This document shows, piece after piece, positions 5,112 through 63,893 of a DNA stretch of 64,000 bases (position 1 is its first letter; each line of letters opens with the position of its first letter). The translations under genes were made by a program, and so were the position numbers. The notes under the pieces were generated by a model. That model ran no database searches and was not told the DNA's origin. It saw only the letters and a program-made list of their open reading frames with translations. Where the stretch lies: positions 2,502,547 to 2,566,546 of the forward strand of contig CAVYBW010000001.1 in the NCBI GenBank assembly GCA_963767035.1, in the 5' to 3' direction. The stretch comes from an uncultured Chloroflexia bacterium. Its GTDB lineage: Bacteria > Chloroflexota > Chloroflexia > Chloroflexales > Herpetosiphonaceae.

Positions 5112-5252
5112 CGTTAATGCAGGCAAGAAGAACAAAGAGCATAGAACAAAGAGCATAGAAATTGAGGATCAGGGGGCTAGGATTTTTAACGCAGAGGATA
5201 CGAGGCTAATAGCTATTTGTAACGGTTCATTGGCTTGGCAAAGATAGGCATT

Positions 5253-10559: not shown

Positions 10560-10599
10560 AGAACATAGAACATAGAACATAGAACATAGAACATAGAGC
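10560..10599. repeat. tandem heptamer repeat (gaacata) x5
   Basis: 'cagaacatagaacatagaacatagaacatagaacatagagc'. Related 'catagaac/agagcat' motifs occur at 5140-5160, 35060-35095, 59779-59805 and 59904-59933. Confidence 0.8.
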
Positions 10600-14160: not shown

Positions 14161-14338
14161 TTAGCGATCAGTTTTTAGGGATTAGGGATCAGGTTTTTAG
14201 CTCCAGATGAGCATGATTATTTCTGCTTTTGCAAGCCGCTCACTAGACGATCTCTGCGACTCTGCGTTAAGACAACTACTAATTGCCTTTTTCTCTGCCA
14301 CCTATTCCCTTACCCCTAGTAACCCTAGCCCCTAGAAA

Positions 14339-43145: not shown

Positions 43146-44377
43146 TGCGGCGGATTGTCTTTCTGATTACCATGGGCATTGAGCGGCCTTCGGGCCAGCG
43201 CTACTTTAATTTGGCCCGTGAACTGGTGCGCCATGGTGATCAGGTGCGAATTTTGGCGTTACACCCCGATTTAGCCCAATGCCAGCAACGCCGCTTGCGC
43301 CAAGCTGGAGTTGAAATTTGGTATGTTGGCCAAATGCATTCGCGCAAACGCCATGGCGAGGTCTTGCCATTTTCGCCGTTGCAATTGCTGTGGGTCTTAA
43401 TCACTGCCACGTTGGGAATGCTTTGGGCCATTGTTTGCTCGCCTGCTGAGATTTATCATCTTGGCAAGCCGCAACCTGTCAATGGTTTGGCAGCGCTATT
43501 AGGCGTGTTGTTGGGTCGTGGCCAGCGTTTTTGGGTCGATTGCGACGATGATGAAGTTGGCAGCAATCGCCTCACCAACCAAGCCCAGCGCATGGTCTTT
43601 GGCTTTTGGCAATGGCTCTTGCCGCGCTTGGCCAAGGGCGTAACGGTTAATACCCAAGCATTGGCCCAGCGCATGCTTCAAGCGCGAGTGCCCAAAATTG
43701 TCTACGTGCCCAATGGCGTTGATTTAGGGTTGTTCCAAGCACCGGAGCCTGTGATCTTGGCAGGTTTGCGCAGCAGTTTGGGCTTAGATGGTAAAAAAGT
43801 AATCGCCTATGTTGGCACGATTGCCTTGCACAATCACCCAATTAACTTATTGCTCGAAGCCTTCGACCTGCAATTAAAGCATGATCCGCTGATTCGTTTG
43901 CTATTAGTTGGCGGTGGCGAAGATTTGGGTTATGTTCAAAGCTGGATTCGCCAGCATGGCTACCATGATCGAATCAGCTGTTTGGGGCATCAAGATCGGC
44001 GCACGATTCCCATGTGGATGGCGCTTGCCGATGTTACGGTTGACCCCGTGTATGATGATGCGGTGGCCCAAGCCCGCTCGCCCTTGAAGCTGTTTGAAAG
44101 CTTGGCCTTGGGAATTCCCCCCGTCACTGGCGATGTGGGCGATCGTCGGCTTGTGTTGAATTTTGCAGCTGATCGCTTGATCGCTCCTGCTGGCGATGCG
44201 TTGGGTTTGGCTCAAACCTTACAAACGGTGCTGGCAACCTGGAGCGACGCAGATCGCCAAGCCTGCTTTGAACGAGCGGCTGACTATGCGTGGTCGGCGT
44301 TGGCGCTACGTTGGCGAGCAGGCTATGAGGAATATTATGCGCAACATCCGCTTGAACCAAGCCCTGCACATGAGTGA
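43145..44377 (+). CDS. glycosyltransferase family 4
   Basis: 'ARSPLKLFESLALGIPPVTGDVGDRR' C-domain. TAATG overlap with the upstream gene. Confidence 0.75.
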   Translation: MRRIVFLITMGIERPSGQRYFNLARELVRHGDQVRILALHPDLAQCQQRRLRQAGVEIWYVGQMHSRKRHGEVLPFSPLQLLWVLITATLGMLWAIVCSPAEIYHLGKPQPVNGLAALLGVLLGRGQRFWVDCDDDEVGSNRLTNQAQRMVFGFWQWLLPRLAKGVTVNTQALAQRMLQARVPKIVYVPNGVDLGLFQAPEPVILAGLRSSLGLDGKKVIAYVGTIALHNHPINLLLEAFDLQLKHDPLIRLLLVGGGEDLGYVQSWIRQHGYHDRISCLGHQDRRTIPMWMALADVTVDPVYDDAVAQARSPLKLFESLALGIPPVTGDVGDRRLVLNFAADRLIAPAGDALGLAQTLQTVLATWSDADRQACFERAADYAWSALALRWRAGYEEYYAQHPLEPSPAHE

Positions 44378-45657
44378 GCTTAGTAATGATTAAGGATTCC
44401 ACGCCAACCCAAACCAGCGTAGCCGAAACGCAATCATCAGCCAAATTGCCACGCGATCGGCTTTTTCAGATTAGCTTTGGGGTTGGCGGCGTGCTGCTAG
44501 CGCGGCTTTTGGGTATTTTTACCCAAATTATTTTGGCCCGTCGCATGGGCGCTGAGCAATATGGTTTGTTCAACTCACTGTATGCGCTCCTTAACCCGTT
44601 GATTATTCTGGCCAATTTGGGTTTGGATAATTGGTTGCTGCGCCAAAGCTCTGATCGGGTATTGCTGAATAAATCGGTTAGTCGGGTGTTTGCCTTGCGC
44701 GGCTTTGTGCTGGCAGGATTGTTATTAGTCGCTGCGCCGTTTGTGAGCATGCGCAACCCGGCCTTTACGCCGTACCTGATTGCCTTGGCCTGCGCGGGGA
44801 TTATTGGCGATTTGTTGGTTGGCACGGCGGATACCTCCTTGCGGGCCTCGATTCAGGTGCTCAAAGCCTCAAGCCTGCAAATTGTGGTGGCGCTGAGTTT
44901 ATTTGCTCCAATTTGGTTTACGCCAGAATTGCCATTTTCAACCGTGGTAATCTATCGCTGTATTGCGGTATCGCTTGGTTTCGGCCTCAGCGTCTACTAT
45001 TTGCATGGCATTTTGCGCTGGGTTTGGCAGCCGCGCCAATGGATTAATACAATTCGTGAGGCCCGTTTTTACTTCGTTTCCGAGGTAATGGCCTACTTAA
45101 CCTTACGGGTTGATCTGTTTTTGGTGGCCTTGTTGTTACCAACAATCAATTCGGCAATTTATGCACCGCCACTGGCAATCATCAACAACACCTTTTTAGT
45201 GCCCAGCATTACCGCCCAAATTTTGCTGCCCATGATTGTCAAACATCCGCCGCGTTCGCCACTGTATCGGCGGGTCATCAGCTTGGCGATTGGCTTGAGT
45301 TTGCTCTATGGTTTGGCATGGTTGGCAATCCTGAGCTGGCATTCGGATTGGATCATCAATCTGATGTATGGTGCTGAGTATGCCGAGGCCATTCCATTGT
45401 TGCAAATTATGGCGATTATTCCCTTGCTCAAAAGCCTTAATTTTTGCTGGGCCACCTTTATGGTTTCCAATGATCAGCAGCCATTGCGGGTTAAATTGCA
45501 AACCATTGGTGCAACGATTAGCATTCTTGGTAATTTTGTGGTCATTCCATTGTATGGATTGCAGGGCGTGGCGATTATTAATATGATCACCGAAATTGCC
45601 CTGTTTATCTCATATGGCTATGGTGCTTGGCTGACCTATCGGAAGGTAATGCGATGA
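44374..45657 (+). CDS. polysaccharide biosynthesis protein / oligosaccharide flippase (Wzx, MOP superfamily)
   Basis: About 12-14 TM. N-terminal 'LLARLLGIFTQIILARRMGAEQYGLF' is typical of Wzx. GTG start overlapping the upstream stop (GTGA). Confidence 0.7.
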   Translation: MSLVMIKDSTPTQTSVAETQSSAKLPRDRLFQISFGVGGVLLARLLGIFTQIILARRMGAEQYGLFNSLYALLNPLIILANLGLDNWLLRQSSDRVLLNKSVSRVFALRGFVLAGLLLVAAPFVSMRNPAFTPYLIALACAGIIGDLLVGTADTSLRASIQVLKASSLQIVVALSLFAPIWFTPELPFSTVVIYRCIAVSLGFGLSVYYLHGILRWVWQPRQWINTIREARFYFVSEVMAYLTLRVDLFLVALLLPTINSAIYAPPLAIINNTFLVPSITAQILLPMIVKHPPRSPLYRRVISLAIGLSLLYGLAWLAILSWHSDWIINLMYGAEYAEAIPLLQIMAIIPLLKSLNFCWATFMVSNDQQPLRVKLQTIGATISILGNFVVIPLYGLQGVAIINMITEIALFISYGYGAWLTYRKVMR

Positions 45658-46961
45658 AGGTTTTGTTATTAAATGCCCATTCGCCGCAAAATGCTGGCGA
45701 TTTGGCCTTGCTTGAGCAATCGTTGGCCCATTTACAGGCGGCGTTTCCCCACGCCGATCTGAGTTATGTGATTAATCAGCCCGAGCCGCCAGCATGGTTG
45801 CCTGCTGCTGTGCCATATCTTCGTTCGATCCATGAACATAAAACCAATTTGATCAAAGATGCACCCAAACCACGCCGTAAATGGCTGATGATGGGTTTAG
45901 CGATCTGGTTGGTTAGCATCAGCCTGCTCTATCGCTGGACTGGGATCAAACTCAAACCACGGGCAAGCAGTGCTTGGCGCGAATTGCTTGAGCATTATTT
46001 TGAGGCCGATGCTACCGCAGCGATTGGCGGCGGCTATTTGTATGCCACCAAAGCCTTTGATTTAAACTATATTTGGGTTTGGTTGGGAGTTGCATTGCCG
46101 GTGCTGATGGGCAAGCCGTTGGTGTTGTTGCCGCAATCGTTTGGGCCAGTTACGGGCAAAATCAACCAACTGCTCTTGGCGTGGTTGGTCAATCGCTCGG
46201 TGCTGGCCTATGCACGTGAGGAGCGCTCGCAGCAATATCTGTATAGCATCGGGGTCAATCAACCGGTGCATGTTGTACCCGATGTGGCCTTCAATTGCCC
46301 AACCGTCGAGCCAGCGCAGGCCGAGCAGTATCTGGCGCGTTGGTGGCAACCAGCCAAACGCCCAGCCTTGCTAGTTGGCATTACGGCGATGGATTTTGGC
46401 ATTCAGCACCCAGGCTCGGGGTTTAGCCATAGCCAACGCTATGAGCAAGCGCTGCTTGATCTGATTCAGCATATCAGCCAATGTGATGATGTACATATCT
46501 TGTTGTTTGCCCAATGCGTTGGCGCAAGCGAGGCCGAGGATGATCGGGTGGTGGCGCGGCGCTTGATGGCCCAATTGCCAGCTGAAACCCCGATAACCTT
46601 TATTGATGATCGCTTGCAGCCCGCGATGCTCAAGCAATTGTATAGCCAACTTGATCTGCTGATTGCAACCCGTTTACATTCGGCAATTTTTGCCTTGAGC
46701 ACCACCACGCCTAGTTTTGTGATTGGCTATTTGCACAAATCGGCGGGAGTGATGCAGATGCTCGGCTTGGCTGATTATCAAATTCCGATTGAATCGATTG
46801 ATAGTGATAACATTATTCGTGCCTTTGACCAAACTTTAGCCGCGCGCGGCTTGATTAAAACCATGATGCAGAGCGCGATTCCAGCGCTGCAACGCCAACT
46901 TGAGCGCTTGCCAAGCCAAATTCGGGCAGCGGTTGGCGATTGGTTACGAGGAGCAAACTAG
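45654..46961 (+). CDS. polysaccharide pyruvyl transferase family protein (CsaB/WcaK-like)
   Basis: N-terminal 'MKVLLLNAHSPQNAGDLALLEQSL' is the PS_pyruv_trans signature. ATGA overlap with the Wzx stop; RBS 'ggaagg'. Confidence 0.75.
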   Translation: MKVLLLNAHSPQNAGDLALLEQSLAHLQAAFPHADLSYVINQPEPPAWLPAAVPYLRSIHEHKTNLIKDAPKPRRKWLMMGLAIWLVSISLLYRWTGIKLKPRASSAWRELLEHYFEADATAAIGGGYLYATKAFDLNYIWVWLGVALPVLMGKPLVLLPQSFGPVTGKINQLLLAWLVNRSVLAYAREERSQQYLYSIGVNQPVHVVPDVAFNCPTVEPAQAEQYLARWWQPAKRPALLVGITAMDFGIQHPGSGFSHSQRYEQALLDLIQHISQCDDVHILLFAQCVGASEAEDDRVVARRLMAQLPAETPITFIDDRLQPAMLKQLYSQLDLLIATRLHSAIFALSTTTPSFVIGYLHKSAGVMQMLGLADYQIPIESIDSDNIIRAFDQTLAARGLIKTMMQSAIPALQRQLERLPSQIRAAVGDWLRGAN

Positions 46962-46969
46962 CAAACCAT

Positions 46970-48136
46970 ATGGATAAAATAACTGTAGCCCATGTAATTA
47001 CTGGCTTTGCCAGCGCAGAAGGAGCAGGCGGCTCGGCCTTGTTTGGCATCGAAGTTGCGCGTGCGCTCGATAAAAGCCGATTTCGACCCATTTTGTGTGG
47101 CATTCATCGCTTTGATACGCCCTCGGAACAGCGTTGGCTCAAAACCTTGGCCGCTGAAGCGATTGAAACGCGGATAATGGTGCCAGAGCGCAGCAAATTG
47201 CGCTACGATATGGTGCGATTTAGCGCCTTGCTCAATCAACTTGTGCGCGATCAAGCAGTCGATATTATTCATACCCATGTTGAGCGGGTTGAATTTTTTA
47301 TTAGCCTGCAAAAATTGTTAAACCCAAGCTACTACCCCAAATTGGTGCGAACGCTGCATGTTAATTCGATGTGGGTAACGCGGCCAATGGTGCGACGCTT
47401 GATGAATCTTGTCTATACGCAATTGTTTAGTGAAGAAATTGCGATTTCTCAAGCCACCAAAACCATGCTTGATCAGCGCAAGGCAGCCCGTATATTTGGC
47501 CGTTCGGCGACTGTGATTCAAAATAGCCTACCCTTGGCGCGGTTAAAAAATTTCGATTTGCCCAAACAGCACACGCCATTCAACCCACCACGCTTTTTAC
47601 TGATTGGCCGCTTAGAAATTCAAAAAGCCCAAGATATTTTTATTCAAGCGGCGGCGTTGGTGTTGCAACACTACCCACATGCTGAGTTTTGGTTGGCAGG
47701 CGAAGGCATGCAAGAGGCCAATTATCGCCAACTTGCGGCCAATTTAGCGATTGAGCATGCGATTAAATTCCTTGGGCCACGCGGAGATATCCCCGCTGTG
47801 CTCAGTCAGGTTGATGTGTTGGTCTCAACCTCGCGCTGGGAAGGCTTTGCAACCGTTATTTTAGAAGGTATGGCAGCTCGCACGCCGGTAATTGCGACCG
47901 ATATTGGCGGCAACAACGAGCAAGTTGTTGATCGTGAGACCGGGCTTTTGGTTGAGGTGGATAATCCAAGTGCAGTGGCAGAGGCGATGATTTGGATGCT
48001 GGAACACCCAACTGAAACTGCTGTGATGGCCCAGCGAGGCTACGAATGGGGGCAGCAGTTCACTATGGAACGTACTGCTGCCCAGTATGGTGCGATCTAT
48101 GAGCGGCTAATTACGGCGCAAAAATATCGACCTTGA
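46970..48136 (+). CDS. glycosyltransferase family 4
   Basis: 'VLVSTSRWEGFATVILEGMAARTPVIATDIGGNNEQVVDRETGLLV' is the GT4 motif. The ATG at 46970 is preferred over the upstream TTG. Confidence 0.8.
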   Translation: MDKITVAHVITGFASAEGAGGSALFGIEVARALDKSRFRPILCGIHRFDTPSEQRWLKTLAAEAIETRIMVPERSKLRYDMVRFSALLNQLVRDQAVDIIHTHVERVEFFISLQKLLNPSYYPKLVRTLHVNSMWVTRPMVRRLMNLVYTQLFSEEIAISQATKTMLDQRKAARIFGRSATVIQNSLPLARLKNFDLPKQHTPFNPPRFLLIGRLEIQKAQDIFIQAAALVLQHYPHAEFWLAGEGMQEANYRQLAANLAIEHAIKFLGPRGDIPAVLSQVDVLVSTSRWEGFATVILEGMAARTPVIATDIGGNNEQVVDRETGLLVEVDNPSAVAEAMIWMLEHPTETAVMAQRGYEWGQQFTMERTAAQYGAIYERLITAQKYRP

Positions 48137-52929: not shown

Positions 52930-53844
52930 TTAGCTGCTCGATGCAGCAACGGTTTGACGACGAAATGGCCATTTGCCATTCACAATGATCACGCCCAGCA
53001 AAATCAAACACAGGCCAATCAGCATATCGCTGCGAATGGCTTCATTCAAAAAGAGCCAGCCCCAAAAAATCGCGAAGATTGGCAAAATATAGGTCACTTG
53101 CGATGTGCGCGCAGCCCCAACTTGCTTGACCAACCAGAAATAGAGAATTTGGGCAACCCCAGTGCCTAAAATGGCCAAACCAAACAGCGACCCGATCGAA
53201 ACCAAACTTGGCATTTGCCAACTGTTGTGATCGACCACGATCGCGATTGGCAAGAGCATCACCGCACCACTGGCCATCTGACCAAAGGCTGGAATCAGCG
53301 CTGGCAAACTGCCAAAGTTGCGGCGCACATACAATGTGCCAATGCCATACATCGCCGCAGCAATAATACAGGCAATTTGGCCCCACGTATCCAAGCTATC
53401 AATGTTGCCAATCGAACGCGAGAATAGATAGACCACGCCCGCAAAGCCTAAGACAATGCCAAAGGTACGCACACCAGTCAAGCGTTCTGAACGCACAAAA
53501 GCAAAGGCCAGAATGATTGTCCATAACGGCGTTGTAGCATTATAGATCGATGCTAGACCGCTGGCGTTAGCGCCCATTTTGTGCTCGCCCCAAGCAAATA
53601 AACAATAGGGCAAGGCCGCATTGATGAAGCCAACAAAACCAAGCGAATACCAAAGCTTGCGCTCGCGCGGCAAACTAATTTTTTGCCAGCGCAAGACTGC
53701 ATAAATCAACACCGCAGCAATCGCCAAACGCAGAAATACAAAGCTAATTGGTGGAATAGTTTCAACGCCAAGTCGAATAAATAAAAATGATGCTCCCCAA
53801 ACTAACGCCAAAATCATCAATACCCCGGTTTGCCGCAGTGTCAT
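52930..53844 (-). CDS. EamA/DMT-family transporter (10 TM)
   Basis: Two EamA repeats. The start is 'MTLRQTG', with RBS 'aaggaagg' 9 nt upstream. Confidence 0.75.
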   Translation of the reverse strand: MTLRQTGVLMILALVWGASFLFIRLGVETIPPISFVFLRLAIAAVLIYAVLRWQKISLPRERKLWYSLGFVGFINAALPYCLFAWGEHKMGANASGLASIYNATTPLWTIILAFAFVRSERLTGVRTFGIVLGFAGVVYLFSRSIGNIDSLDTWGQIACIIAAAMYGIGTLYVRRNFGSLPALIPAFGQMASGAVMLLPIAIVVDHNSWQMPSLVSIGSLFGLAILGTGVAQILYFWLVKQVGAARTSQVTYILPIFAIFWGWLFLNEAIRSDMLIGLCLILLGVIIVNGKWPFRRQTVAASSS

Positions 53845-53933
53845 ACCAAAAATTCCTTCCTTGAAAGCCGAGCAATCTATCAATCAACCGAGGCTGAGCA
53901 GCGCTCTTTAAGCATCGTTTTGGATCACCAGCG

Positions 53934-55430
53934 TTACATCAGCGGGGTGGTTTCGCGCCAAGCACGGGCGGCAAGCTGGCCGCAACGCAAGACATGGCGG
54001 GTCAAAACATCACCGAGTAGGCGAATTCCGCGATCGATCATTTCTGGTGATTGGGTGGCAAAACAAAGCCGCAAGTGGGCGTTGCGTGGCGGTTGGGGAA
54101 AGAAGACGTTACCAAGGGTTACGCCAACGCCTGCTTCAATCGCCTCGGCGTAAATATCGGTCCCATTCAATCCAGCAGGCAAGGTCAGCCAGTAGCATAA
54201 CCCGCCACGTGGATGCGTCCATTGAATATCACGGGGACAATAACGGTTTAACGCGCGGGCCATCGCATCGCGGCGCTCGCGGTAGAGTTCGCGCACATAG
54301 CGCAAATGGGCCGCCAACTGGCCCCGACCAAGATAATCGGCCAAGGCACGTTGCAGCAATGGCGAGCAATGCAAATCGTTGCCACGCTTGGCGGCCAGCA
54401 ATGGGTGCAACAGTTCATCACGGGCAACCAAATAGCCCAAACGTAAGCCAGGAGTCAGAATTTTGGAAAAACTGCCAAGATAGACCACTCGCCCATTGGT
54501 ATCACGAGCCTTAATCGGATGAGGTGGCTGAGAATCGTAGCTCAATGGCCCATACACATCATCTTCTAAAATAATCAGATTATGTTCTTCGGCCAGTTGC
54601 AGCAGTGCTGCTTGACGCTCGGCTGAAAGGCAAACGCCAGTTGGGTTGTGAAAGGTCGGCACGGTATAGAGCAACCGTGGTTTATATTCGCACAGCACCC
54701 GTTGCAAAATATCCAGCCGCATACCTTGATCATCCAATGGAATGCCGATCAAGCGCACACCCAAGGCTGTAGCTTGCTCGATAAAGCCCAAATAGGTTGG
54801 CTCCTCGACCAAAACCACATCGCCTTGGCGCACAAAGGCCTTTAATGCCAACGATACACCTTGCTGCGCCCCAGTTGTCACCAGCACATGGTCGGGCGAG
54901 GTAACCACATTGCGATCAAGCAGCCATGTGGCAATAGCTTCGCGCAAGCATAATTCACCTTGGGTTGGGCCATACCCCAACGAGCTAGGGTCGCGTAGGG
55001 CTTGTTGAATCGCACGGCCAATTTCACGCACAGGAAAGGTTTCTTCGGCAGGTGAGGCTTGGGCAAAGGAGATCAGATTGGGCTGTTGGGCCAGGCGCAG
55101 CATATCAGCCAGCATGCCTTGGCTAATCCATGGCGTTTGCAGCTCATCAACAGCCCGCTGGCGTAGCTCATATTCGGGGATAATCGGCTTCGATCGTTCG
55201 GCGACGAAGGTGCCACGGCCAACGTAGGCCTCAACCCAACCACTCGCTTGCAATTCACTATAGGCATTATGCACCGTCAAACGGGTCAGGCCAAGCGATC
55301 CAGCTAAATCGCGTACCGGTGGAAGTTTGGTGCCAGCCGGCAAAGAGCCACTGCGAATCCGTTCTTGCAGTTGTTCAGATAATTGAATGTACAGTGGCTT
55401 AGCATGATGGCGATCGAGCTGGAATTCCAT
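53934..55430 (-). CDS. MocR/PdxR-type regulator: GntR wHTH fused to a class I aminotransferase-like PLP domain
   Basis: 'KPLYIQLSEQLQERIRSG...LPPVRDLAGSLGLTRLTVHNAYSELQASGWV' is the GntR domain. The aminotransferase domain has 'SFSKILTPGLRLGYLV' as its PLP-Lys region. Confidence 0.8.
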   Translation of the reverse strand: MEFQLDRHHAKPLYIQLSEQLQERIRSGSLPAGTKLPPVRDLAGSLGLTRLTVHNAYSELQASGWVEAYVGRGTFVAERSKPIIPEYELRQRAVDELQTPWISQGMLADMLRLAQQPNLISFAQASPAEETFPVREIGRAIQQALRDPSSLGYGPTQGELCLREAIATWLLDRNVVTSPDHVLVTTGAQQGVSLALKAFVRQGDVVLVEEPTYLGFIEQATALGVRLIGIPLDDQGMRLDILQRVLCEYKPRLLYTVPTFHNPTGVCLSAERQAALLQLAEEHNLIILEDDVYGPLSYDSQPPHPIKARDTNGRVVYLGSFSKILTPGLRLGYLVARDELLHPLLAAKRGNDLHCSPLLQRALADYLGRGQLAAHLRYVRELYRERRDAMARALNRYCPRDIQWTHPRGGLCYWLTLPAGLNGTDIYAEAIEAGVGVTLGNVFFPQPPRNAHLRLCFATQSPEMIDRGIRLLGDVLTRHVLRCGQLAARAWRETTPLM

Positions 55431-55815: not shown

Positions 55816-56889
55816 TTAGGCTTGGAGTGGCAAGTAGATGCTAAACACACTGCCTTGGCCAATCTGGCTGGTCACTTCGATGCTACCACCGTGCAGATCG
55901 ACAATTTCTTTGACTACAAACAGGCCAATGCCCAGCCCTGACACATGGCTGCGGGCGGCGTTGCTAGCGCGATAAAAACGGGTAAAGAGGTTGGGCAACG
56001 ATTCAGGCGGAATCCCAATGCCCTGATCACGAATTTGGACAATCGCTTGCTGGGCATTGCGATCAACACTCACCAGCACTTCGGTTTGTTCGGGGCTATA
56101 TTTCAGCGCATTGTTGATCAAATTAACAAATACTTGTCTGAAACGCGTTAAATCGCCTGCCACATGGATGGGCTGGTTGCTGCTACAGTGATAACGAATC
56201 TGATGATGATCGATGGTGATCGCCAAATCATTGACCAAATTTTGCAAGAGTTGGGCCAAATCGATCTGATCGTGCTGAATATCAAGTTGGCCGGTTTCGA
56301 TGCGTGAAACATCGAGCAAGGCGGTAACCATCTTATTCATGCGATTGGCTTGGGCCTCAATCGCTTGGAGCGAACGCTGGAGCCGTTCATCCTCAAAGTT
56401 GAGCCGTTCTAAGCGCCGCAAGCTTAATTGCGATTGACCAAGCAAGGTGGTAAGTGGGTTTTTCAGCTCGTGCGAGGCAATCGATAAAAACACATCGCGC
56501 AAACGCACAGCATCTTGGGCCTGACGATAGAGATGCGCCTGTTCAAGCGCTAAGACCATCCGCTGGCCTAATTCTTCGGCCAATTCAAAATCAGTTTGAT
56601 CAAAGGTGTGCTGATCGTGTAAAAAGACAATCGCTCCACTCAGTTGATGTTGATCGCGAAATGGGATGATGATTGCCGATTGATAGGGCGCTGGCAGAGC
56701 GTGATCGATAATTTGGGCTTGGCCGCTCGCAATCGCCGGTGCAAACGCCGGATGCGCTTGCCAATTGATCAACGGTTCAGCAGCGCTACTATAGCTACAC
56801 AGTGGCTCATCGTCGGGATCAAGCACCAAATACAAGCCGCAGGCAGTGCTAAAACTTGGGGTTGGCACGCCAGCGCTGGTTTCTAACAC
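55816..56889 (-). CDS. C-terminal portion: GAF remainder, HisKA, HATPase_c
   Basis: GTG start overlapping the upstream stop by 7 nt, in another frame. 'ACGLYLVLDPDD...AIVFLHDQHTF' GAF; 'FLSIASHELKNPLTTL' H-box; 'VRIRDQGIGIP...GLGIGLFVVKEIVDLHGGSIEV'. Confidence 0.65.
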   Translation of the reverse strand: MLETSAGVPTPSFSTACGLYLVLDPDDEPLCSYSSAAEPLINWQAHPAFAPAIASGQAQIIDHALPAPYQSAIIIPFRDQHQLSGAIVFLHDQHTFDQTDFELAEELGQRMVLALEQAHLYRQAQDAVRLRDVFLSIASHELKNPLTTLLGQSQLSLRRLERLNFEDERLQRSLQAIEAQANRMNKMVTALLDVSRIETGQLDIQHDQIDLAQLLQNLVNDLAITIDHHQIRYHCSSNQPIHVAGDLTRFRQVFVNLINNALKYSPEQTEVLVSVDRNAQQAIVQIRDQGIGIPPESLPNLFTRFYRASNAARSHVSGLGIGLFVVKEIVDLHGGSIEVTSQIGQGSVFSIYLPLQA

Positions 56890-58004
56890 GTGGACAGATC
56901 AATTGTAGCCGCCAATTGATTATGTAATGTTCGTAACAAGCGTTGGCCAAACTCATCACGATAGCGCTCGGTCACATCGCGAAACACCATAACCGCGCCA
57001 ATTACTTGCTGCTCGCGGTCATAAATTGGGGCGGCGCTATCCTCAATTGCCACATAGCCATTGCCGTGGCGCATCACCACCGAATTGCTCAAGGTAACAA
57101 TTTGTTCCTGCTCCAAAGCCGTATTGACGGGATGGGCAAGCGGTTGCTTGGTTATTGGATCAAAAATTGCTGCGACCGTGTTGATTGATTGGCCGACTGC
57201 TTGATCTTCAGGCCAGCCGGTAATTGTACTGGCTATATAATTCATAAAACTAATGGTGCCATCATTATCAGTGGTAAGCACAGCATCACCGATGCTCGCC
57301 AGCGTCACCGCAAACCATTCGCGCTGGTTGCGTAACTCATTAGTCGCTTGTTCACGACGACGCACATCACGTTCATTTAAGGCCATTGTGACAATCACAA
57401 AACTTGTCGCAATCAAAGTTGCAAAGGCTAAGGCCAAGCCTGCTCGCTGCACATTGAGCCTTGTCTGGGCAGCCCGATCAAGCGCGCGGCCATTCTCGCG
57501 CACCAGCAACTGACCGACAATCTGACGAATTGTATCCATATGCTGTTTGCCTTGATTTTCCAGCACGATAACTTGGGCGGCCTCAAAGCCTTGGCTACGC
57601 CGCAAATCGATGGTGGTAATCAACTCTTGTTGTTGCTGGGCAATCAGGTTTTTTAGCTCTGGTAGGCGGGAGTGGAAAATTGGGCGATTTCTACTGTGGG
57701 CTTCAATCTCAGTCAATAATCCGGGAAGTTCATTTTTGGCAATATGATACGGCTCTAAATACTGCTCGCTGCCAGTAATAATAAAGCCCCGTTGGCCGGT
57801 TTCGGCATCGGTAAGCAGCAGCAACAGCCGATTCAAGCGGTTGGTCATCGTTTCCGACTCAATCACATTGGCATTATTGGCTTGAATGGTTTGGAGATAT
57901 TGCCACGAAAGGAGGCCATTGACGATAATGACAAGTGCTGCTAGCATGAACCAACGATTTAATTTGTGCGACACTAATGTTTTCATCGTAGACCATCGCA
58001 ACAC
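56883..58004 (-). CDS. sensor protein N-terminal portion: TM, CHASE3, TM, PAS, start of GAF (probably the 5' part of one frameshifted sensor kinase gene)
   Basis: 'QYLQTIQANNANVIESETMTNRLNRLLLLLTDAETGQRGFIITGSEQYLEPY' is CHASE3. PAS 'AVLTTDNDGTISFMNYIASTITGW'. Ends '...LAATIDLSTC*'. Confidence 0.65.
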   Translation of the reverse strand: MLRWSTMKTLVSHKLNRWFMLAALVIIVNGLLSWQYLQTIQANNANVIESETMTNRLNRLLLLLTDAETGQRGFIITGSEQYLEPYHIAKNELPGLLTEIEAHSRNRPIFHSRLPELKNLIAQQQQELITTIDLRRSQGFEAAQVIVLENQGKQHMDTIRQIVGQLLVRENGRALDRAAQTRLNVQRAGLALAFATLIATSFVIVTMALNERDVRRREQATNELRNQREWFAVTLASIGDAVLTTDNDGTISFMNYIASTITGWPEDQAVGQSINTVAAIFDPITKQPLAHPVNTALEQEQIVTLSNSVVMRHGNGYVAIEDSAAPIYDREQQVIGAVMVFRDVTERYRDEFGQRLLRTLHNQLAATIDLSTC

Positions 58005-58247
58005 ATAACAACTCCACCTTCAATATGATATGCAAGCAGTTCATACCGAATCATCGCTTAGCAAGCTTGACGCACGGTAGGACTGTCGCCAGAAAGCATT
58101 GTTGCAGCCGATTGCAACCTATTGAGTGCTCGGTGTGATTGAATTGTAGCATATTCATGCCACATCTTTGCTACATAGCCGTTTCAACATCCACTGATAA
58201 CTGATCTGCGTAGCCTTGGCTATGGCAATCACAGGAAGGAGCATTGT

Positions 58248-58517
58248 ATGTTCAATGCCCAAGAACGAACCACTCTAGAACAACAAGCAGTTGGGATTTT
58301 TCGCCAACATGTTGAAGACCTATGGCATGGTTTTATTCCCCCGCAACGCTATGGCATTCTTGATGGCGATTCGTTGCAGCCTCCCCAATTTCCAGCGATT
58401 CGGCGTAGTTCATTCGAAATCGAAGCCCACCCTTTGGATACCCAATCGTTCTTTGTGGTGTATCAACGTCGTGATGACAAAGATGGTGGATGGTATCGAT
58501 TACAACGGCTGTTTTAA
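58248..58517 (+). CDS. hypothetical small protein (89 aa)
   Basis: Good RBS 'aggaaggag'; no recognisable family. Confidence 0.4.
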   Translation: MFNAQERTTLEQQAVGIFRQHVEDLWHGFIPPQRYGILDGDSLQPPQFPAIRRSSFEIEAHPLDTQSFFVVYQRRDDKDGGWYRLQRLF

Positions 58518-58698
58518 CTATCAAATTTTAGCTAATTTGGTTGTACGTTAAGCAAAAACGCGCCAAAATAGGCTCTTCGATCAGCACAGCTTGAATAAGC
58601 TGTGCAATTTGCTATGTTTGCTTGCCAATGGATTTTAACTGGAGTACAATTTTTCCTTGGATACAGCTTCCGTTAAACCTTCAAGGAGTTGAGTCGTT

Positions 58699-59772
58699 TT
58701 GAGTAAGAAAATTCGAGTAGCCATTATTGGCGTGGGCAACTGCGCCTCGTCACTCGTCCAAGGGATTGAGTTCTACAAAAATGCCAACGAGGGCGACCAT
58801 GTACCAGGCTTGATGCACGTTAATCTTGGTGGGTATCACGTCAGTGATATCGAATTCACCGCTGGCATTGATATTAATATTACCAAGGTCGGCAAGGATT
58901 TATCTGAAGCGATTTTCGCTGAACCCAACAACACCTACAAATTCTCTGAAGTCCCACACTTAAACGTACCAGTCTATCGCGGCATGACCCACGATGGTTT
59001 GGGTAAATATCTTTCGCAAGTGATTGAAAAAGCACCTGGCTCAACCGACGATATTGTTAAAATTCTGCGCGATACCAAAACCGATGTCGTGATCAGCTAT
59101 CTGCCAGTTGGCTCAGAAATGGCCACCAAGTGGTATGTTGAGCAAATTCTCGAAGCTGGCTGCGCCTTCATCAACTGTGTGCCAGTCTTTATTGCCAGCC
59201 AAGACTATTGGCGCAAGCGCTTCGAAGAAAAGAACTTGCCAATTATCGGCGACGATATCAAATCGCAAGTTGGCGCAACCATCGTTCACCGTGTGCTAAC
59301 CAACTTGTTCGAGCAACGTGGCGTGCGTTTGGATCGCACCTATCAATTGAACTTTGGTGGCAACACTGACTTCTACAATATGCTCGAACGCGAACGCTTG
59401 GAATCGAAAAAAATCTCCAAGACCAACGCTGTTACCAGCCAATTGCCCTATGCCTTGCCCGCCGATAGTGTTCACGTTGGCCCAAGCGACTATGTGCCAT
59501 GGTTGACCGACCGCAAGTGGTGCTATATTCGCATGGAAGGCACAACCTTTGGCAACGTGCCATTGAATGCCGAAGTCAAGCTCGAAGTCTGGGATTCGCC
59601 CAACTCGGCTGGCGTGGTAATCGATGCCATTCGCTGTGCCAAATTGGCGCTTGATCGTGGTGTCGGTGGTGCGTTGTATGCACCGTCATCATACTTTATG
59701 AAAACCCCACCTGAACAATACACCGATGACGAAGCTCACCGCCGCACCGAAGCCTTTATCGCTGGCGAATAG
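58699..59772 (+). CDS. ino1: myo-inositol-1-phosphate synthase (bacterial/archaeal short form)
   Basis: '[24 protein letters not shown]' Rossmann N-terminus; '[14 protein letters not shown]'; about 357 aa, typical of the prokaryotic MIPS family. TTG start after 'aaggag'. Confidence 0.8.
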
Positions 59773-59778
59773 CTGAGG

Positions 59779-59933
59779 GAGAACAGAGAGCATAGAGCAT
59801 AGAACAAATTGAGAGTGCAGGGGTCAGGGGCTAGCTATCAGTACGGAGGGTTTGGCCTATTAAACTTCGCTACTGCGAAAGCTGGCTTCCTAGCTCCTAA
59901 TCCCTCTGTTCTATGCTCTCTGTTCTATGCTCT
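59779..59933. repeat. MITE-like element: inverted terminal blocks built from 'catagaac/agagag' units flanking a ~98-bp core
   Basis: Left 'gagaacagagagcatagagcatagaac'; right 'ctctgttctatgctctctgttctatgctct', a reverse-complement composition. It occupies the ino1/acyltransferase intergenic region. Confidence 0.5.
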
Positions 59934-59941
59934 AATTACGT

Positions 59942-60808
59942 ATGAACACACTAGCACTCTATCGTTTGGCCATCCGTTGGTTGCCGCGTTTCCCCAATTG
60001 GCTGGTGTATGCAGCCTGCGATCTCTTCGGCCTCTTGGCGTTGTTTAGTCCTAAATTACGCCGCAACACGCGCGCGAATTTGGCTCGGGTTAGCCCCAAA
60101 ACCCAAGGCTTGGCACGCTGGTATATGCAATGGCGGGTTGTGGCCAATGTTTTGCGCCATTATGCCGATCTCGTGCGCTTGCCAGCGTGGAGCCTTGAGC
60201 ACATGCGCGAACGCTTCGATTACTCTGGTTTAGCGCATTTGCAAACGCTCGCCGAAACTGGCGGGTTGTTGGTGGTTGCCCATACCGGCGCATTTAGCAC
60301 TGGGCTTTCGGTCTTAGCCGCCCATGGCTTGCCGGTAGTATTGGTGGTCGAAGCAATTGAGCCGCCTGAATTTCTAGAATTAATCAAAGAATTGCGCCAA
60401 GCCCATGGCGGCGAATTGATTGTGCTCGGGCCAAATGCAGGCCGCGAAGTGCTCAAAGCCCTGCGAGCCAAGAAAATCGTAGTTTTGGCTGGCGATCGTG
60501 ATTTAGCGTCGCAATCAGTCAACGTGCCATTCTTTGGTGAGTTGGCCGAGGTGCCGATTGGTCCAGCCCGCTTGGCGTTACGTGGTTGGCCCGTGGCACT
60601 TGGCAGCTGTGCGTGGTTTGGAGCCAATCAACCATTTTTTCGCGTCGATCCAATTCGCTATTTTCAGGCCTTGCCTGGCGAAAACGCCGATCAAGCAGCA
60701 GAGCGGGTTGCTAGCGAAATGCTCAGCTATCTGGAAGGCTGGATTCGCACATGGCCTGAAAGTTGGGGTGTGCTGCAACCAGTTTGGCCTGAGCGCACCA
60801 TTGATTAA
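59942..60808 (+). CDS. lysophospholipid/lipid acyltransferase of the LpxL/HtrB/PatA family (PF03279-like)
   Basis: 'LVVAHTGAFSTGLSVLA', 'VVLAGDRDLASQSVNVPFFGELAEVPIGPARLALRGWP' (conserved DQ/DR plus FFG region); about 290 aa. Confidence 0.65.
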   Translation: MNTLALYRLAIRWLPRFPNWLVYAACDLFGLLALFSPKLRRNTRANLARVSPKTQGLARWYMQWRVVANVLRHYADLVRLPAWSLEHMRERFDYSGLAHLQTLAETGGLLVVAHTGAFSTGLSVLAAHGLPVVLVVEAIEPPEFLELIKELRQAHGGELIVLGPNAGREVLKALRAKKIVVLAGDRDLASQSVNVPFFGELAEVPIGPARLALRGWPVALGSCAWFGANQPFFRVDPIRYFQALPGENADQAAERVASEMLSYLEGWIRTWPESWGVLQPVWPERTID

Positions 60809-60886
60809 ATTTCGTGCTACTATTGGGCCGAACCATGCAATTTGCTGATTCGCTGAACAACTAGCATACAAAGGAAGGCCAAGCAC

Positions 60887-61936
60887 ATGGCCACGATGCC
60901 AATGAGTGAAACCTATATTCAACCGAGCGAACCAACGCGCAGCCATCCATGGCGAGTGATTATTCAAATTCCCTGTTTGAATGAAGAGGAAACGCTGCCG
61001 GCAGTGTTGAATGATATTCCCTTGGATTTACCCAATGTGCATTTTGAAACCTTAGTGATTGACGATGGCTCGACTGATCGCACGGTTGAAGTTGCCCGCG
61101 AACTTGGGGTCAACTATATTGTGCGCCATCGTGGTCGCAAAGGCTTGCCAGCCGCCTTTCAATCGGGCATGGATGCGGCGCTGAAGCTCGGCGCTGATAT
61201 CATTGTCAACACCGATGGCGATCATCAATACCCTGGTTCGGCGATTCCAGATTTGATCAAGCCAATTTTAGAGGGCAAGGCCGATATTGTGATTGGCGAC
61301 CGCCAAACCCAAAATGTCGAGCATTTTTCGACCCAAAAGAAATTACTACAACGGGTTGGTAGTTGGGTTGTGCGCGTTGCCTCCGATACCGATGTGCCCG
61401 ATGCGCCCAGTGGTTTTCGCGCCTATTCCAAAGAAGCAGGCTTGCGTTTGTATGTTACCAGCGAATTTTCCTATACGATTGAAAATTTAATTCAGGCTGG
61501 CAAACGGCGGCTGCATGTTGATCATGTGGCGATTACCACCAAGCCAACCCGACCATCGCGCTTGCATCGCGGCAATTTTAATTTTGTTAAGCGCCAAGGT
61601 GCAACGATTATCCGCACCTATGCCCAATATGAACCGCTGAAAACCTTTACCTACTTTGCGCTGCCATTTTTGCTGATCGGCGGCGGCCTGCTGCTACGCT
61701 TTATGATCTACTATTTACTTGATCCCAATCAGACCTATACCCGCTATTTACAATCGGTTTTTATTGGCGGCGTGTTTATGATTGTCGGAATTTTAACCTT
61801 CTTCATTGGCATTTTGGCCGACTTGAGCGGCAACAATCGCCGAATCAACGAAGAAATTCTCTATCGTTTGCGCAACCTTGAAGTTGAGGTTGCCCGCCGC
61901 TCACCGCCCAATGATGGCGAAGAAATCCGCGATTAG
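60887..61936 (+). CDS. GT2 polyprenol-phosphate glycosyltransferase (DPM1/GtrB/ArnC-like) with two C-terminal TM helices
   Basis: 'IIQIPCLNEEETL', 'LVIDDGSTDRT', 'DGDHQY' (DXD), and C-terminal helices 'FALPFLLIGGGLLLRFMIYYLL' and 'FIGGVFMIVGILTFFIGILADL'. Confidence 0.8.
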   Translation: MATMPMSETYIQPSEPTRSHPWRVIIQIPCLNEEETLPAVLNDIPLDLPNVHFETLVIDDGSTDRTVEVARELGVNYIVRHRGRKGLPAAFQSGMDAALKLGADIIVNTDGDHQYPGSAIPDLIKPILEGKADIVIGDRQTQNVEHFSTQKKLLQRVGSWVVRVASDTDVPDAPSGFRAYSKEAGLRLYVTSEFSYTIENLIQAGKRRLHVDHVAITTKPTRPSRLHRGNFNFVKRQGATIIRTYAQYEPLKTFTYFALPFLLIGGGLLLRFMIYYLLDPNQTYTRYLQSVFIGGVFMIVGILTFFIGILADLSGNNRRINEEILYRLRNLEVEVARRSPPNDGEEIRD

Positions 61937-62150
61937 GGGTCAGGGATCAGGTGCTAGGGTTCAGTTTTTGATTCACGAAGGACACGAAGGCCGAAACCGC
62001 GAAGATCACGAAGATCGCGAAGGTTAAGTTTTTAGCCACAGATTCCACAGATTTCTGGATTAGCTACGAGCGATGTCCAACGTGTTGGCTGATCCCTGAC
62101 TGCTGACCTCTTTTCCTCCTTCATCCCTCATCCCTCATCCTTTATCCCTT
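61937..62150. repeat. intergenic short-repeat cluster ('gggatcagg', 'cacgaag' x4, 'catccctcatccctcatcc')
   Basis: Same motif family as 14160-14200, 27601-27690, 35100-35300 and 63940-64000. Confidence 0.6.
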
Positions 62151-62200
62151 TCAGCTTATAATAAGCCCATCGTCCCGCACTTTGTTTTGGGAGGCTTAGA

Positions 62201-62974
62201 ATGAATCAGTTTGATGATGTACGTGCCGTGTTATGCGATATGGATGGCGTATTGGTCCACGGCGCGCAAATTATTCCTGGCGCGCCAGAGTTTTTGGGTC
62301 GGCTCCGCGCTTCAGGCCGCAAATTTTTAGTCCTGACCAACAATTCAATTTATACTCCGCGCGATTTGCAGGCCCGTTTGGCGCGAATCGGCTTGCCCCT
62401 AGAAATTGAAGATATTTATACTTCGGCCTTGGCCACCGCCAAATTCCTCGATTCGCAACGGCCCAATGGCACAGCCTTTGTGATTGGTGAAGCCGGCCTG
62501 ACTAATGCGCTCTACGATGTTGGCTACACCATGACCGAGCATGATCCTGATTATGTGGTAATTGGCGAAACCACATCCTACAGCTTTGAACGCATCACCC
62601 AAGCTGTGCGCTTAGTGGCAGCTGGCTCACGCTTGATCGGCACCAATCCTGATGTTTCGGGGCCATCAGAGCGCGGCATTTTGCCAGCCTGTGGCGCAGT
62701 TGTGGCCTTAATTCAGGCTGCCACCAACGCCGAAGCTTATTTTGTGGGCAAGCCCAACCCCGTGATGATGCGAACTGCGCTGCGAACGATCGACTCGCAT
62801 GCCGCCGAAGCGATGATGATTGGCGACCGCATGGATACCGATATCATTGGCGGCACGGAGTCTGGGATGCGCACAGCGCTGGTGCTTTCGGGCATGATGA
62901 CCCGCTTGGATGCCGAACGCTATCCTTACCGTCCAACCGCAATTATTGAATCAGTCGCTGAATTGTTCAATTAA
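62201..62974 (+). CDS. HAD-superfamily subfamily IIA phosphatase (NagD-like sugar-phosphate phosphatase)
   Basis: 'VLCDMDGVLVHG' motif I; 'LVLTNNS' motif II; 'GKP...GDRMDTDI' motifs III/IV. Confidence 0.8.
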   Translation: MNQFDDVRAVLCDMDGVLVHGAQIIPGAPEFLGRLRASGRKFLVLTNNSIYTPRDLQARLARIGLPLEIEDIYTSALATAKFLDSQRPNGTAFVIGEAGLTNALYDVGYTMTEHDPDYVVIGETTSYSFERITQAVRLVAAGSRLIGTNPDVSGPSERGILPACGAVVALIQAATNAEAYFVGKPNPVMMRTALRTIDSHAAEAMMIGDRMDTDIIGGTESGMRTALVLSGMMTRLDAERYPYRPTAIIESVAELFN

Positions 62975-62979
62975 AAACC

Positions 62980-63011
62980 AAATGTCCGCTGATCAAAACC
63001 AGCGGACATTT
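62980..63011. terminator. bidirectional terminator hairpin between the HAD gene and panB
   Basis: 'aaatgtccgctg atcaaaac cagcggacattt', flanked by A and T runs. Confidence 0.65.
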
Positions 63012-63026
63012 GATTTAATGCGTGAT

Positions 63027-63893
63027 TTAGACTGCGAATTTGGCGTTTGCCCCGATACTGACCGATTGTTCTCCCAGCGCTTCGGCTAAGGTTTTGGCAT
63101 CGATCACGCTGCTGTTAGCGGCTGTTGGAAAGCTACGTTCGCGCACTTCTTGGGCATATTGATTGAGTGCTTGCTCAATCGTGCTGCCCAAATCGGCATA
63201 GCGCTTGGTGTGACGTGGTAGATGATCGCTATACAAGCCCAAAATATCGTGCCAAACTTGTACCTCGCCATCGCAACCAACCCCGGCCCCAATCCCAATC
63301 GTTGGAATATTCAAACGGGCAGTGATTGCTTTGGCCAACGCCGCTGGAATTAACTCCAAAACGATCGCAAACGCGCCAGCGGCCTCAAGCGCCAAGGCAT
63401 CTTCGAGCAATTGTCGTGCATGGACAACGGTTTTGCCCTGCACACGCATCCCAATTTGGTTAACTGATTGCGGCGTAAAGCCTAAATGGCCAATGACTGG
63501 AATGCCCAAATCGACGAGACGACGCACAGTCGAAGCCATATTGACTCCACCTTCGAGCTTGACCGCGCCACAACCACCAATTTGCATCAATTTGCCAGCA
63601 TTTTGAATCGCTTGCTCAGGGCTGGTATAGCTCAAAAATGGTAAATCGCCAACCACCAGCGCTTTGCTGCTGCCGCGCATCACGGCCTTGGTGTGATAGA
63701 CCATTTCATCGATAGTTACGGGCACGGTTGAGCTATTGCCCTGAATTACCATGCCCAACGAATCGCCGACCAAAATCAAGGGAATATCGGTGCGATCAAC
63801 CAGTTGGGCACTGGTGTAATCGTAAGCGGTAACCATCACCAAGCGTTCGCCACGCTCTTTCATCCGTTGAATATCGCTCAATTGGGTGCGCAT
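63027..63893 (-). CDS. panB: 3-methyl-2-oxobutanoate hydroxymethyltransferase (ketopantoate hydroxymethyltransferase)
   Basis: '[40 protein letters not shown]', 'GHLGFTPQS'. RBS 'aaggag' 6 nt before the ATG at 63893; the ORF-track start is too long. Confidence 0.85.

Follow-up and report, generated by a model that had tools for sequence, protein, structure and literature searches.

Phosphatidylinositol mannosides (PIMs), with their acylation by PatA, count as a hallmark of the Actinobacteria and as an anti-tuberculosis drug target. The reference locus is pgsA1-patA-pimA of Mycobacterium tuberculosis (Rv2612c-Rv2610c), and PatA, which uses acyl-CoA to place palmitate on the 6-OH of the mannose at inositol O2 of PIM1/PIM2, is represented in the Protein Data Bank (PDB) by entries 5F2T and 5OCE. 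Actinobacterial Ppm1, whose gene is unlinked to ino1 or patA, makes polyprenyl phosphomannose (PPM), which feeds the extracytoplasmic mannosylation that elongates PIM, lipomannan, and lipoarabinomannan (PMC3485146). Outside the Actinobacteria, the BT_1522-BT_1526 operon of Bacteroides thetaiotaomicron carries a phosphatidylinositol phosphate (PIP) synthase (PIPS), a PgpA-like PIP phosphatase, and an inositol phosphorylceramide synthase and makes phosphatidylinositol (PI) and inositol sphingolipids (Heaver et al. 2022, PMC9246714). Here, we describe a three-gene operon, conserved in the Chloroflexia, within a 64,000-nucleotide stretch of DNA (the window) from an uncultured Herpetosiphonaceae bacterium (GCA_963767035.1, contig CAVYBW010000001.1, positions 2,502,547 to 2,566,546). 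It consists of ino1, encoding myo-inositol-3-phosphate synthase (MIPS), a gene for a PatA-like acyltransferase (AT), and a gene for a polyprenyl-phosphate hexose synthase of glycosyltransferase family 2 (GT2); we call the three the trio.

The trio shares with the actinobacterial PIM locus a genetic link to inositol lipid metabolism, but its host is a Chloroflexia bacterium rather than an actinobacterium, and ino1 and GT2 stand in place of PIPS and the family 4 glycosyltransferase (GT4) PimA. By analogy, it would work like the actinobacterial machinery of PatA, Ppm1, and Ino1, yet it is not a locus of the pgsA1-patA-pimA type, because PIPS and PimA are absent in cis, the PatA model cut-off is missed, and the counterpart of PatA His284 is lost. 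Like the Bacteroides operon, it joins MIPS to membrane lipid-modifying enzymes outside the Actinobacteria; unlike the trio, that operon has neither a PatA-like AT nor a polyprenyl-phosphate GT2. A first-pass annotation of the window had proposed a four-gene inositol glycolipid module mirroring pgsA-patA-pimA, and its overall interpretation is partly supported: the AT is PatA-like and linked to ino1, and its outgroup lies in an operon complete with PIPS, but the fourth gene falls outside the conserved unit. Our literature searches on PI, inositol, PIM, and PIPS in Herpetosiphon and the Chloroflexi turned up no account of this gene cluster.

The ino1-AT-GT2 trio of the Chloroflexia

We gathered gene neighbourhoods, labelled with L-numbers (L001, L003, and so on), by exact-protein look-ups, one genome scan with the AT, and one metagenome scan, which gave a sample of 79 loci holding AT relatives; all were annotated with hidden Markov models (HMMs) made from the proteins themselves. 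The gene order ino1-AT-GT2 was found in 15 loci from Herpetosiphonales and Kallotenue-type genomes. Besides the window, they are L001, from a near-identical strain; L003-L006, from four further Herpetosiphon species; L007, L008, L010, L011, L015, and L016, on Herpetosiphonaceae-type contigs at a greater distance; and the Kallotenue-type genomes L094 (K. papyrolyticum), L097, and L098. Because the same order recurs in 15 loci from two orders of Chloroflexia, the linkage of these three genes is far beyond chance. The pairing of ino1 with an HtrB/PatA-type AT behind it on the same strand, which the first-pass annotation had pointed out, is therefore real and conserved, and the four plus-strand open reading frames (ORFs) that it described carry the domains, and occupy exactly the coordinates, that it claimed for them.

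The proteins diverge at very different rates. Relative to the window proteins, MIPS is 85-98% identical across all trio loci and GT2 60-98% (60-62% at the most distant), while AT identity falls to 33-35% in distant trio loci where MIPS stays at 85%. The window is from a member of Herpetosiphon, a soil-dwelling, gliding genus of Chloroflexi; in the genome scan, its AT shared 88-90% identity with the ATs of H. llansteffanensis, H. giganteus, H. geysericola, and Herpetosiphon sp. NSE202. The ino1 protein is assigned by homology: it scores 127 bits against a Pfam cut-off of 27 for PF01658 (4e-37) and matches M. tuberculosis Ino1 (1GR0) over residues 2-356 in a PDB sequence search (1.5e-144). The mycothiol-specific equivalog model TIGR03450 covers its full length at 535 bits, below the cut-off of 638.

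We deduced operon structure from gene spacing and conservation. The AT stop and GT2 start overlap by 4 nt in L010, L094, L097, and L098; ino1 and AT overlap or lie <82 nt apart in those four loci and in L007 and L008, with a spacing of 4-5 nt in L008 and L098. Such tight packing in the distant loci is the pattern expected of a co-translated operon. The Herpetosiphon gaps are wider, at 169 nt (ino1-AT) and 78 nt (AT-GT2). We read them as secondary insertions, because dispersed inverted repeats of heptamer units, found at other places in the window too, fill them; the element in the ino1-AT gap is genus specific and probably has no role in the pathway.

The acyltransferase, the glycosyltransferase, and their relatives

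The AT belongs to PF03279 (Lip_A_acyltrans, 2e-26, residues 10-282 of 288), a family that includes lipid A acyltransferases, yet it is nearer to PatA by every line of evidence. Its best curated model is PatA (NCBIfam NF005919, 115 bits, 4e-33), with a lead of >75 bits over the LpxL-, LpxM-, and LpxP-type models, which give ≤37 bits against cut-offs of 273-491. PatA is likewise always the best curated model for the trio relatives (122 bits in L007 and 134 in Kallotenue), at 115-134 bits against 37-76 for the best LpxL/LPLAT model. A PDB sequence search returned PatA at 1.9e-16 and LpxM at 0.69. In a Foldseek search with an AlphaFold2 (AF2) model of the AT (predicted local distance difference test score [pLDDT], 90.3), ranks 1-12 are all PatA (TM score, 0.74-0.83; root mean square deviation [rmsd], 2.9-3.6 Å; 24-27% identity), followed by two matches to LpxM (TM score, 0.63-0.65; rmsd, 5.2-6.6 Å; 16-17% identity). 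PatA thus has the same fold and is closest in both sequence and predicted structure, and of the two kinships that the label HtrB/PatA left possible, PatA prevails over LpxL. The AT is no clean PatA orthologue, however, because its 115 bits lie well under the curated cut-off of 209; ATs of the classical PIPS-AT-GT4 metagenome loci (L019 and L031) exceed that cut-off, at 236-300 bits.

Mutagenesis of Mycobacterium smegmatis PatA identified H126 and E200 as catalytic and E149, R164, and H284 as required for transfer to PIM (PMC4792965). We mapped the PatA residues onto 121 ATs (Table 1); the roles of the pocket residues come from a published docking model rather than from the structure of a complex. 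The predicted catalytic His114 and Asp185 are invariant in a 48-sequence set and in all 121 ATs, and the carboxylate is Asp in the classical PIPS-AT-GT4 clade too, L019 and L031 included. The trio AT therefore has the same catalytic His and block-3 carboxylate as PatA, and keeps the mannose-contacting Glu and Arg as well as Gln287, but differs from PatA at His284, Tyr80, Tyr83, and Asp131. Judged from the alignment and the docking model, the trio ATs retain the chemistry and the hexose-binding side of the pocket, and the side docked against inositol and the second mannose is remodelled. The trio-clade ATs are monophyletic in a neighbour-joining tree of the 121 ATs, which has no LpxL outgroup and no bootstrap and was used for this point alone.

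Table 1. Counterparts of PatA residues in the classical PIPS-AT-GT4 clade and in the trio clade
PatA residue	Role	Classical clade	Trio clade
H126	catalytic	His	His114
E200	catalytic	Asp	Asp185
E149	mannose O4	Glu	Glu137 (12/12)
R164	mannose O2	Arg	Arg152 (12/12)
Q287		Gln	Gln279
H284	inositol O3	His (10/11)	Gly276 (10/12)
Y80		Tyr (9/11)	Val70 (10/12)
Y83		Tyr	His73
D131		Glu or Asp	Ser119

The gene contexts of related ATs tie this family to inositol lipids. The nearest outgroup is a large Limnocylindria clade (~30% identity) whose members lie in a six-gene operon of PIPS, ino1, two tandem AT paralogues, a PHP phosphoesterase, and a PimA-like GT4. This operon is present in L013 (4973-10800), L014 (5100-10818), and ~50 metagenome loci, either complete or clipped by contig ends (for example, L022, L030, L047, L049, L052, and L071); its PIPS scores 155 bits on NF045883 against a cut-off of 170. 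The classical order PIPS-PatA-GT4 is seen in a third group (L019, L031, L039, L043, L059, L062, and L087). Across the 79 metagenome loci, the AT family occurs almost exclusively in PI/PIM-type clusters and, on two independent occasions, together with ino1. The Limnocylindria operon shares with the trio the AT family, the inclusion of ino1, and the phylum, but it is self-contained, and it lacks GT2, which among these AT cluster types is confined to the Chloroflexia layout. We found no characterisation of the Limnocylindria operon in the literature that we searched.

Two Limnocylindria proteins deserve separate mention. We know of no gene assigned to the PIP phosphatase step in Actinobacteria, nor of any identification of the second (inositol) acyltransferase of PIM biosynthesis. 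The PHP protein is of the CehA/McbA type and weakly resembles 3',5'-bisphosphate nucleotidase; it is a candidate PIP phosphatase, an activity that, according to the 2022 Bacteroides study, had not previously been identified in bacteria (PMC9246714). The second AT paralogue carries E149D, H284Y, Q287R, and a GG after the catalytic Asp; it is a candidate for the inositol acyltransferase.

The GT2 matches PF00535 (1.5e-22), and its D110-x-D112 motif is invariant in 43 homologues. Its AF2 model (pLDDT, 89.8) places helices at residues 231-248, 250-278, and 288-338, of which the last two are long, hydrophobic, and C-terminal and are visible in the sequence as well. ArnC, dolichyl-phosphate mannose synthase (DPMS), and GtrB make up all of the 22 best PDB matches to this model, and the alignments, of 300-362 columns, take in the membrane helices. 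With DPMS (5MLZ), GtrB (5EKP), and ArnC (9BHC), the GT2 shares a GT-A domain with the DxD motif, followed by juxtamembrane and transmembrane helices; the structural match is full length (TM score, 0.57-0.73), at an identity of only 17-26%. The closest solved sequence is that of Pyrococcus furiosus DPMS (5e-18). The modelled architecture is that of a polyprenyl-phosphate glycosyltransferase, as the first-pass annotation had proposed, and the reaction expected by analogy would be NDP-sugar + polyprenyl phosphate → polyprenyl-phosphate-sugar. The sugar cannot be assigned, because no NCBIfam equivalog is approached (AglJ, 93 bits against a cut-off of 325; PpgS, 61 against 370; ArnC, 36 against 529); DPMS being the closest solved sequence, mannose is weakly favoured.

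Unlike DPMS, GtrB, ArnC, and Ppm1, the GT2 comes from an uncharacterised family in which identity stays at 57-65% over several phyla, with members in the Anaerolineae, Kallotenue, and the Gemmatimonadota; all 8,000 candidates scored had E values of <1e-10. This identity is unusually high for a GT2. We take the GT2 for a generic synthase of lipid-linked sugar donors, joined by the Chloroflexia to ino1 and patA. At the Gemmatimonadota locus, the gene that follows GT2 encodes a 508-amino-acid (aa) protein with a weak PMT_2 (GT-C) match; in an Anaerolineae metagenome-assembled genome, GT2 stands back to back with a HAD-IA hydrolase and a MocR regulator.

Proposed pathway and alternatives

With a confidence slightly better than even, we favour a scenario in which the trio helps build a PIM-like acylated, glycosylated inositol phospholipid. 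MIPS, by homology, would convert glucose-6-phosphate to inositol-3-phosphate, which a PIPS encoded elsewhere in the genome would build into PI. The head group would then be glycosylated, at least partly outside the membrane, from a polyprenyl-phosphate-hexose made by GT2, in analogy to Ppm1. The PatA-like AT, with His114 activated by Asp185, would esterify a hydroxyl group of the head-group sugar with a fatty acyl chain taken from acyl-CoA, and the end product would be a PIM-like glycolipid or a lipoglycan anchor for an envelope free of lipopolysaccharide (LPS). Chemotaxonomic work has reported PI in Roseiflexus, of the class Chloroflexia (PMC3276260), and in Dictyobacter (PMC12453558).

Several observations weigh against this scenario. 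No PIPS, PHP phosphatase, or PimA-like GT4 lies within 8-10 kb on either side of any of the 15 trios. The first-pass annotation had noted that the window lacks a CDP-alcohol phosphatidyltransferase, and it does: a six-frame scan for the motif DGxxAR..G..D..D and a search with a PIPS HMM built from the Limnocylindria enzymes were both negative. Its proposal to look for such an enzyme just beyond the locus likewise met with none within those 8-10 kb. The GT4s that do occur near trios, 3-17 kb away, are generic, at 24-58 bits on an HMM on which the GT4s of PI clusters reach 115-916. The AT falls short of the PatA equivalog cut-off. At the positions docked against inositol and the second mannose, the trio clade has Gly, Val, and His instead of H284, Y80, and Y83, all of which bona fide PatA loci retain, so that the acceptor may differ from PIM1/PIM2. 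The place of GT2 in the operon may be loose, because this generic family occurs without ino1 or AT in the Gemmatimonadota and Anaerolineae (L095:8001-10606 and L096:7070-8999). Finally, we found no lipid analysis of Herpetosiphon or Kallotenue in the searchable literature.

Some of these points lend themselves to the main alternative, which we rate as rather unlikely, namely that AT and GT2 are a functional pair acting on an acceptor other than a PI mannoside, for example, the neighbouring polyprenyl-phosphate-hexose or a non-PI inositol glycoside. Mycobacteria make a comparable compound, 6-O-mycolyl-mannosyl-phosphopolyprenol. The AT-GT2 junction is the tightest in the trio, with its 4-nt overlap in four loci; neither PIPS nor GT4 is present in cis; the PatA cut-off is missed; and the AT pocket keeps the hexose-contacting E137 and R152 while its inositol side is remodelled. 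This last argument, however, comes from a docking model. The pairing also leaves the strict co-conservation of ino1 unexplained, every related AT clade is located in PI-type clusters, and GT2, being generic, is present without the AT in other phyla.

We consider it unlikely, too, that the Chloroflexia make an inositol- or polyprenyl-phosphate-linked acyl-glycolipid by a route that bypasses the classical cytoplasmic PIPS/PimA steps. The remodelled AT would then acylate another acceptor, for instance a beta-glycosylated inositol lipid or the polyprenyl-phosphate-hexose whose synthase the overlapping GT2 gene encodes.

That ino1 instead serves to make a soluble inositol compound (a compatible solute, for example, or the precursor of a thiol-type cofactor) and adjoins envelope genes for historical reasons strikes us as improbable. 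MIPS is indeed far more conserved than AT, and its closest model is the mycothiol-type INO1 of the Actinobacteria; Herpetosiphon does not ferment inositol, so ino1 is anabolic. Against such a detached role, gene order and tight spacing are kept across two orders, and the trio loci showed neither an MshA-like nor an IPCT/DIPPS-like gene. The Limnocylindria ino1, moreover, lies between PIPS and the ATs in ~50 loci, which ties the AT family to inositol supply.

The first-pass annotation had counted a fourth gene, for a HAD-IIA phosphatase, into the module as a candidate inositol-1-phosphate phosphatase. A role for this protein in the pathway, whether on inositol-1-phosphate or on PIP, is very improbable. 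Its family is confirmed (TIGR01460, 151 bits against a cut-off of 100), and in the window, as in the five closely related Herpetosiphon loci L001 and L003-L006, it lies on the same strand directly downstream of GT2, with 98-100% identity among these loci. It is found beside the trio solely there. It is absent in the nine other loci, including L007, L008, L010, L011, L015, L094, L097, and L098, even though the AT of L015 is still 74% identical to that of the window. A repeat-filled gap of 264 nt separates GT2 and HAD-IIA in the window, and in L001, where MIPS, AT, and HAD-IIA are identical to the window proteins and GT2 is 99.7% identical, a gene for an EcsC-family protein (225 aa) is inserted at this point (L001:8711-10000 against window 61937-62200). 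Because its linkage is restricted to close Herpetosiphon loci and the EcsC gene intervenes in L001, we treat HAD-IIA as a neighbour and not as a component. Its best matches are NagD and pNPPase-type enzymes, with Escherichia coli NagD (2C4N) closest (8e-60 in a PDB sequence search), and by this resemblance it would be an unrelated NagD-type phosphatase. A HAD hydrolase does belong to a putative alternative inositol cluster of Bacteroides and Prevotella, but bacterial PIP synthase takes inositol phosphate directly, in a route that needs no free inositol and hence no inositol-1-phosphate phosphatase (PMC9246714).

A role for the AT as a late lipid A acyltransferase (LpxL/LpxM) of the LPS pathway, a reading favoured by PF03279 and by the automatic JGI name 'KDO2-lipid IV(A) lauroyltransferase' of some relatives, is effectively refuted by the LpxL/LpxM model scores, the LpxM sequence match and poorer fold fit, the absence of lpx genes from the 64-kb window, the location of AT relatives in PI clusters, and the LPS-free envelope that, to our knowledge, the Chloroflexia are regarded as having.

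Neighbouring features and significance

The coordinates of the trio and of the surrounding features are collected in Table 2. Our promoter and terminator scan gave counts no higher than in shuffled sequence, and the promoter-like site is a consensus match only. An Rfam scan of 57500-63500 returned nothing beyond one sub-threshold match to a small RNA.

Table 2. Features of the trio locus and its surroundings (window coordinates)
Feature	Position	Strand	Basis or remark
Wzx-type pyruvylated polysaccharide cluster	39955-48136	+	six overlapping genes
MocR-type regulator (GntR + aminotransferase) and EamA transporter gene	52930-55430	-	upstream of ino1
Sensor kinase CHASE3-PAS-GAF-HisKA-HATPase	55816-58004	-	two ORFs, 373 and 357 aa, 7-nt overlap
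89-aa ORF	58248-58517	+	without family match
Terminator-like hairpin	58584-58605		ahead of promoter-like site
Promoter-like site TTGCCA-17-TACAAT	58622..58650	+	10/12 consensus match, 49 nt upstream of ino1; putative operon start
ino1, myo-inositol-3-phosphate (L-Ins-1-P) synthase, 357 aa	58699..59772	+	PF01658, 1GR0 match
Inverted-repeat element, ino1-AT gap	59780..59933	.	27-nt arms, 85% complementary, 100 nt apart, heptamer-like units
AT, PatA-like membrane-associated acyltransferase, 288 aa	59942..60808	+	PF03279; predicted dyad His114/Asp185
GT2 polyprenyl-phosphate glycosyltransferase (GtrB/DPMS/ArnC architecture), 349 aa	60887..61936	+	PF00535, AF2 model
HAD-IIA NagD-like phosphatase, 257 aa	62201..62974	+	Hydrolase_6 + Hydrolase_like, TIGR01460; outside conserved module
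Dispersed short intergenic repeats	5130-5159, 10561-10597, 14178-14192, 59780-59933, 61939-62160, 63972-63986		copies at 5130-5159 and 10561-10597 related to the ino1-AT gap element

The dispersed repeats are built of heptamer-like units (GAACATA/GAGCATA, CACGAAG, CTCATCC, and GTCAGGGATCAG), often as inverted arms of 12-27 nt that lie ~100-140 nt apart; one repeat 16-mer has 9 matches against 0.01 expected. They resemble the STRR repeats of cyanobacteria and account for the enlarged operon gaps in this genus. The EcsC gene of L001 is a recent indel in one such repeat-rich intergenic region.

Just upstream of the promoter-like site, and ending before the hairpin, the 89-aa ORF is called as a gene in L001 and is not kept in distant trio loci. 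The sensor kinase is a single 729-aa gene in L001, and its split in the window reflects a frameshift, a pseudogene, or an error in sequencing the window's source. In the window, L001, L007, and L010, the gene for the MocR-type regulator is found upstream of ino1 and on the other strand; in all of these but L010, an EamA transporter gene follows it. We considered these two genes as part of the module and rejected them: they are a common pair of their own, and in the window the histidine-kinase gene stands between them and ino1. The MocR/EamA pair is probably an independent regulon whose adjacency is recurrent.

Farther upstream, the polysaccharide cluster encodes a 682-aa protein without a Pfam family, two GT4s, a Wzx-like flippase, a polysaccharide pyruvyl transferase, and a third GT4, with a TylF-type O-methyltransferase gene just downstream on the opposite strand. 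As a source of the missing PimA/PimB it was rejected; its GT4s reach 27-58 bits on the PI-cluster GT4 HMM, and the cluster is of a generic Wzx type. Downstream of the four genes, panB lies on the opposite strand. A scan of the remaining window for lipid or GT-C genes showed nothing but housekeeping genes, among them those for MurJ, EF-G, RecG, and Tex.

For the window itself, the trio is a refinement of annotation until lipid data exist. A pair of AT and GT2 acting on its own acceptor, were it real, would represent a glycolipid class not yet described in the Chloroflexia, and a route bypassing PIPS and PimA would add a new class of glycolipids and, for the PatA family, a new acceptor specificity. 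The comparison also supplies natural variants of the PatA acceptor pocket and, as a by-product, concrete candidates for two steps, the PIP phosphatase and the second (inositol) acyltransferase of PIM biosynthesis. If the trio does help build a PIM-like lipid, the patA-like/ino1 operon of the Chloroflexia, together with the complete Limnocylindria operon, would extend PIM-type envelope chemistry to a second phylum, the Chloroflexota, whose cell-envelope architecture is debated, and would help date the origin of bacterial inositol glycolipids.

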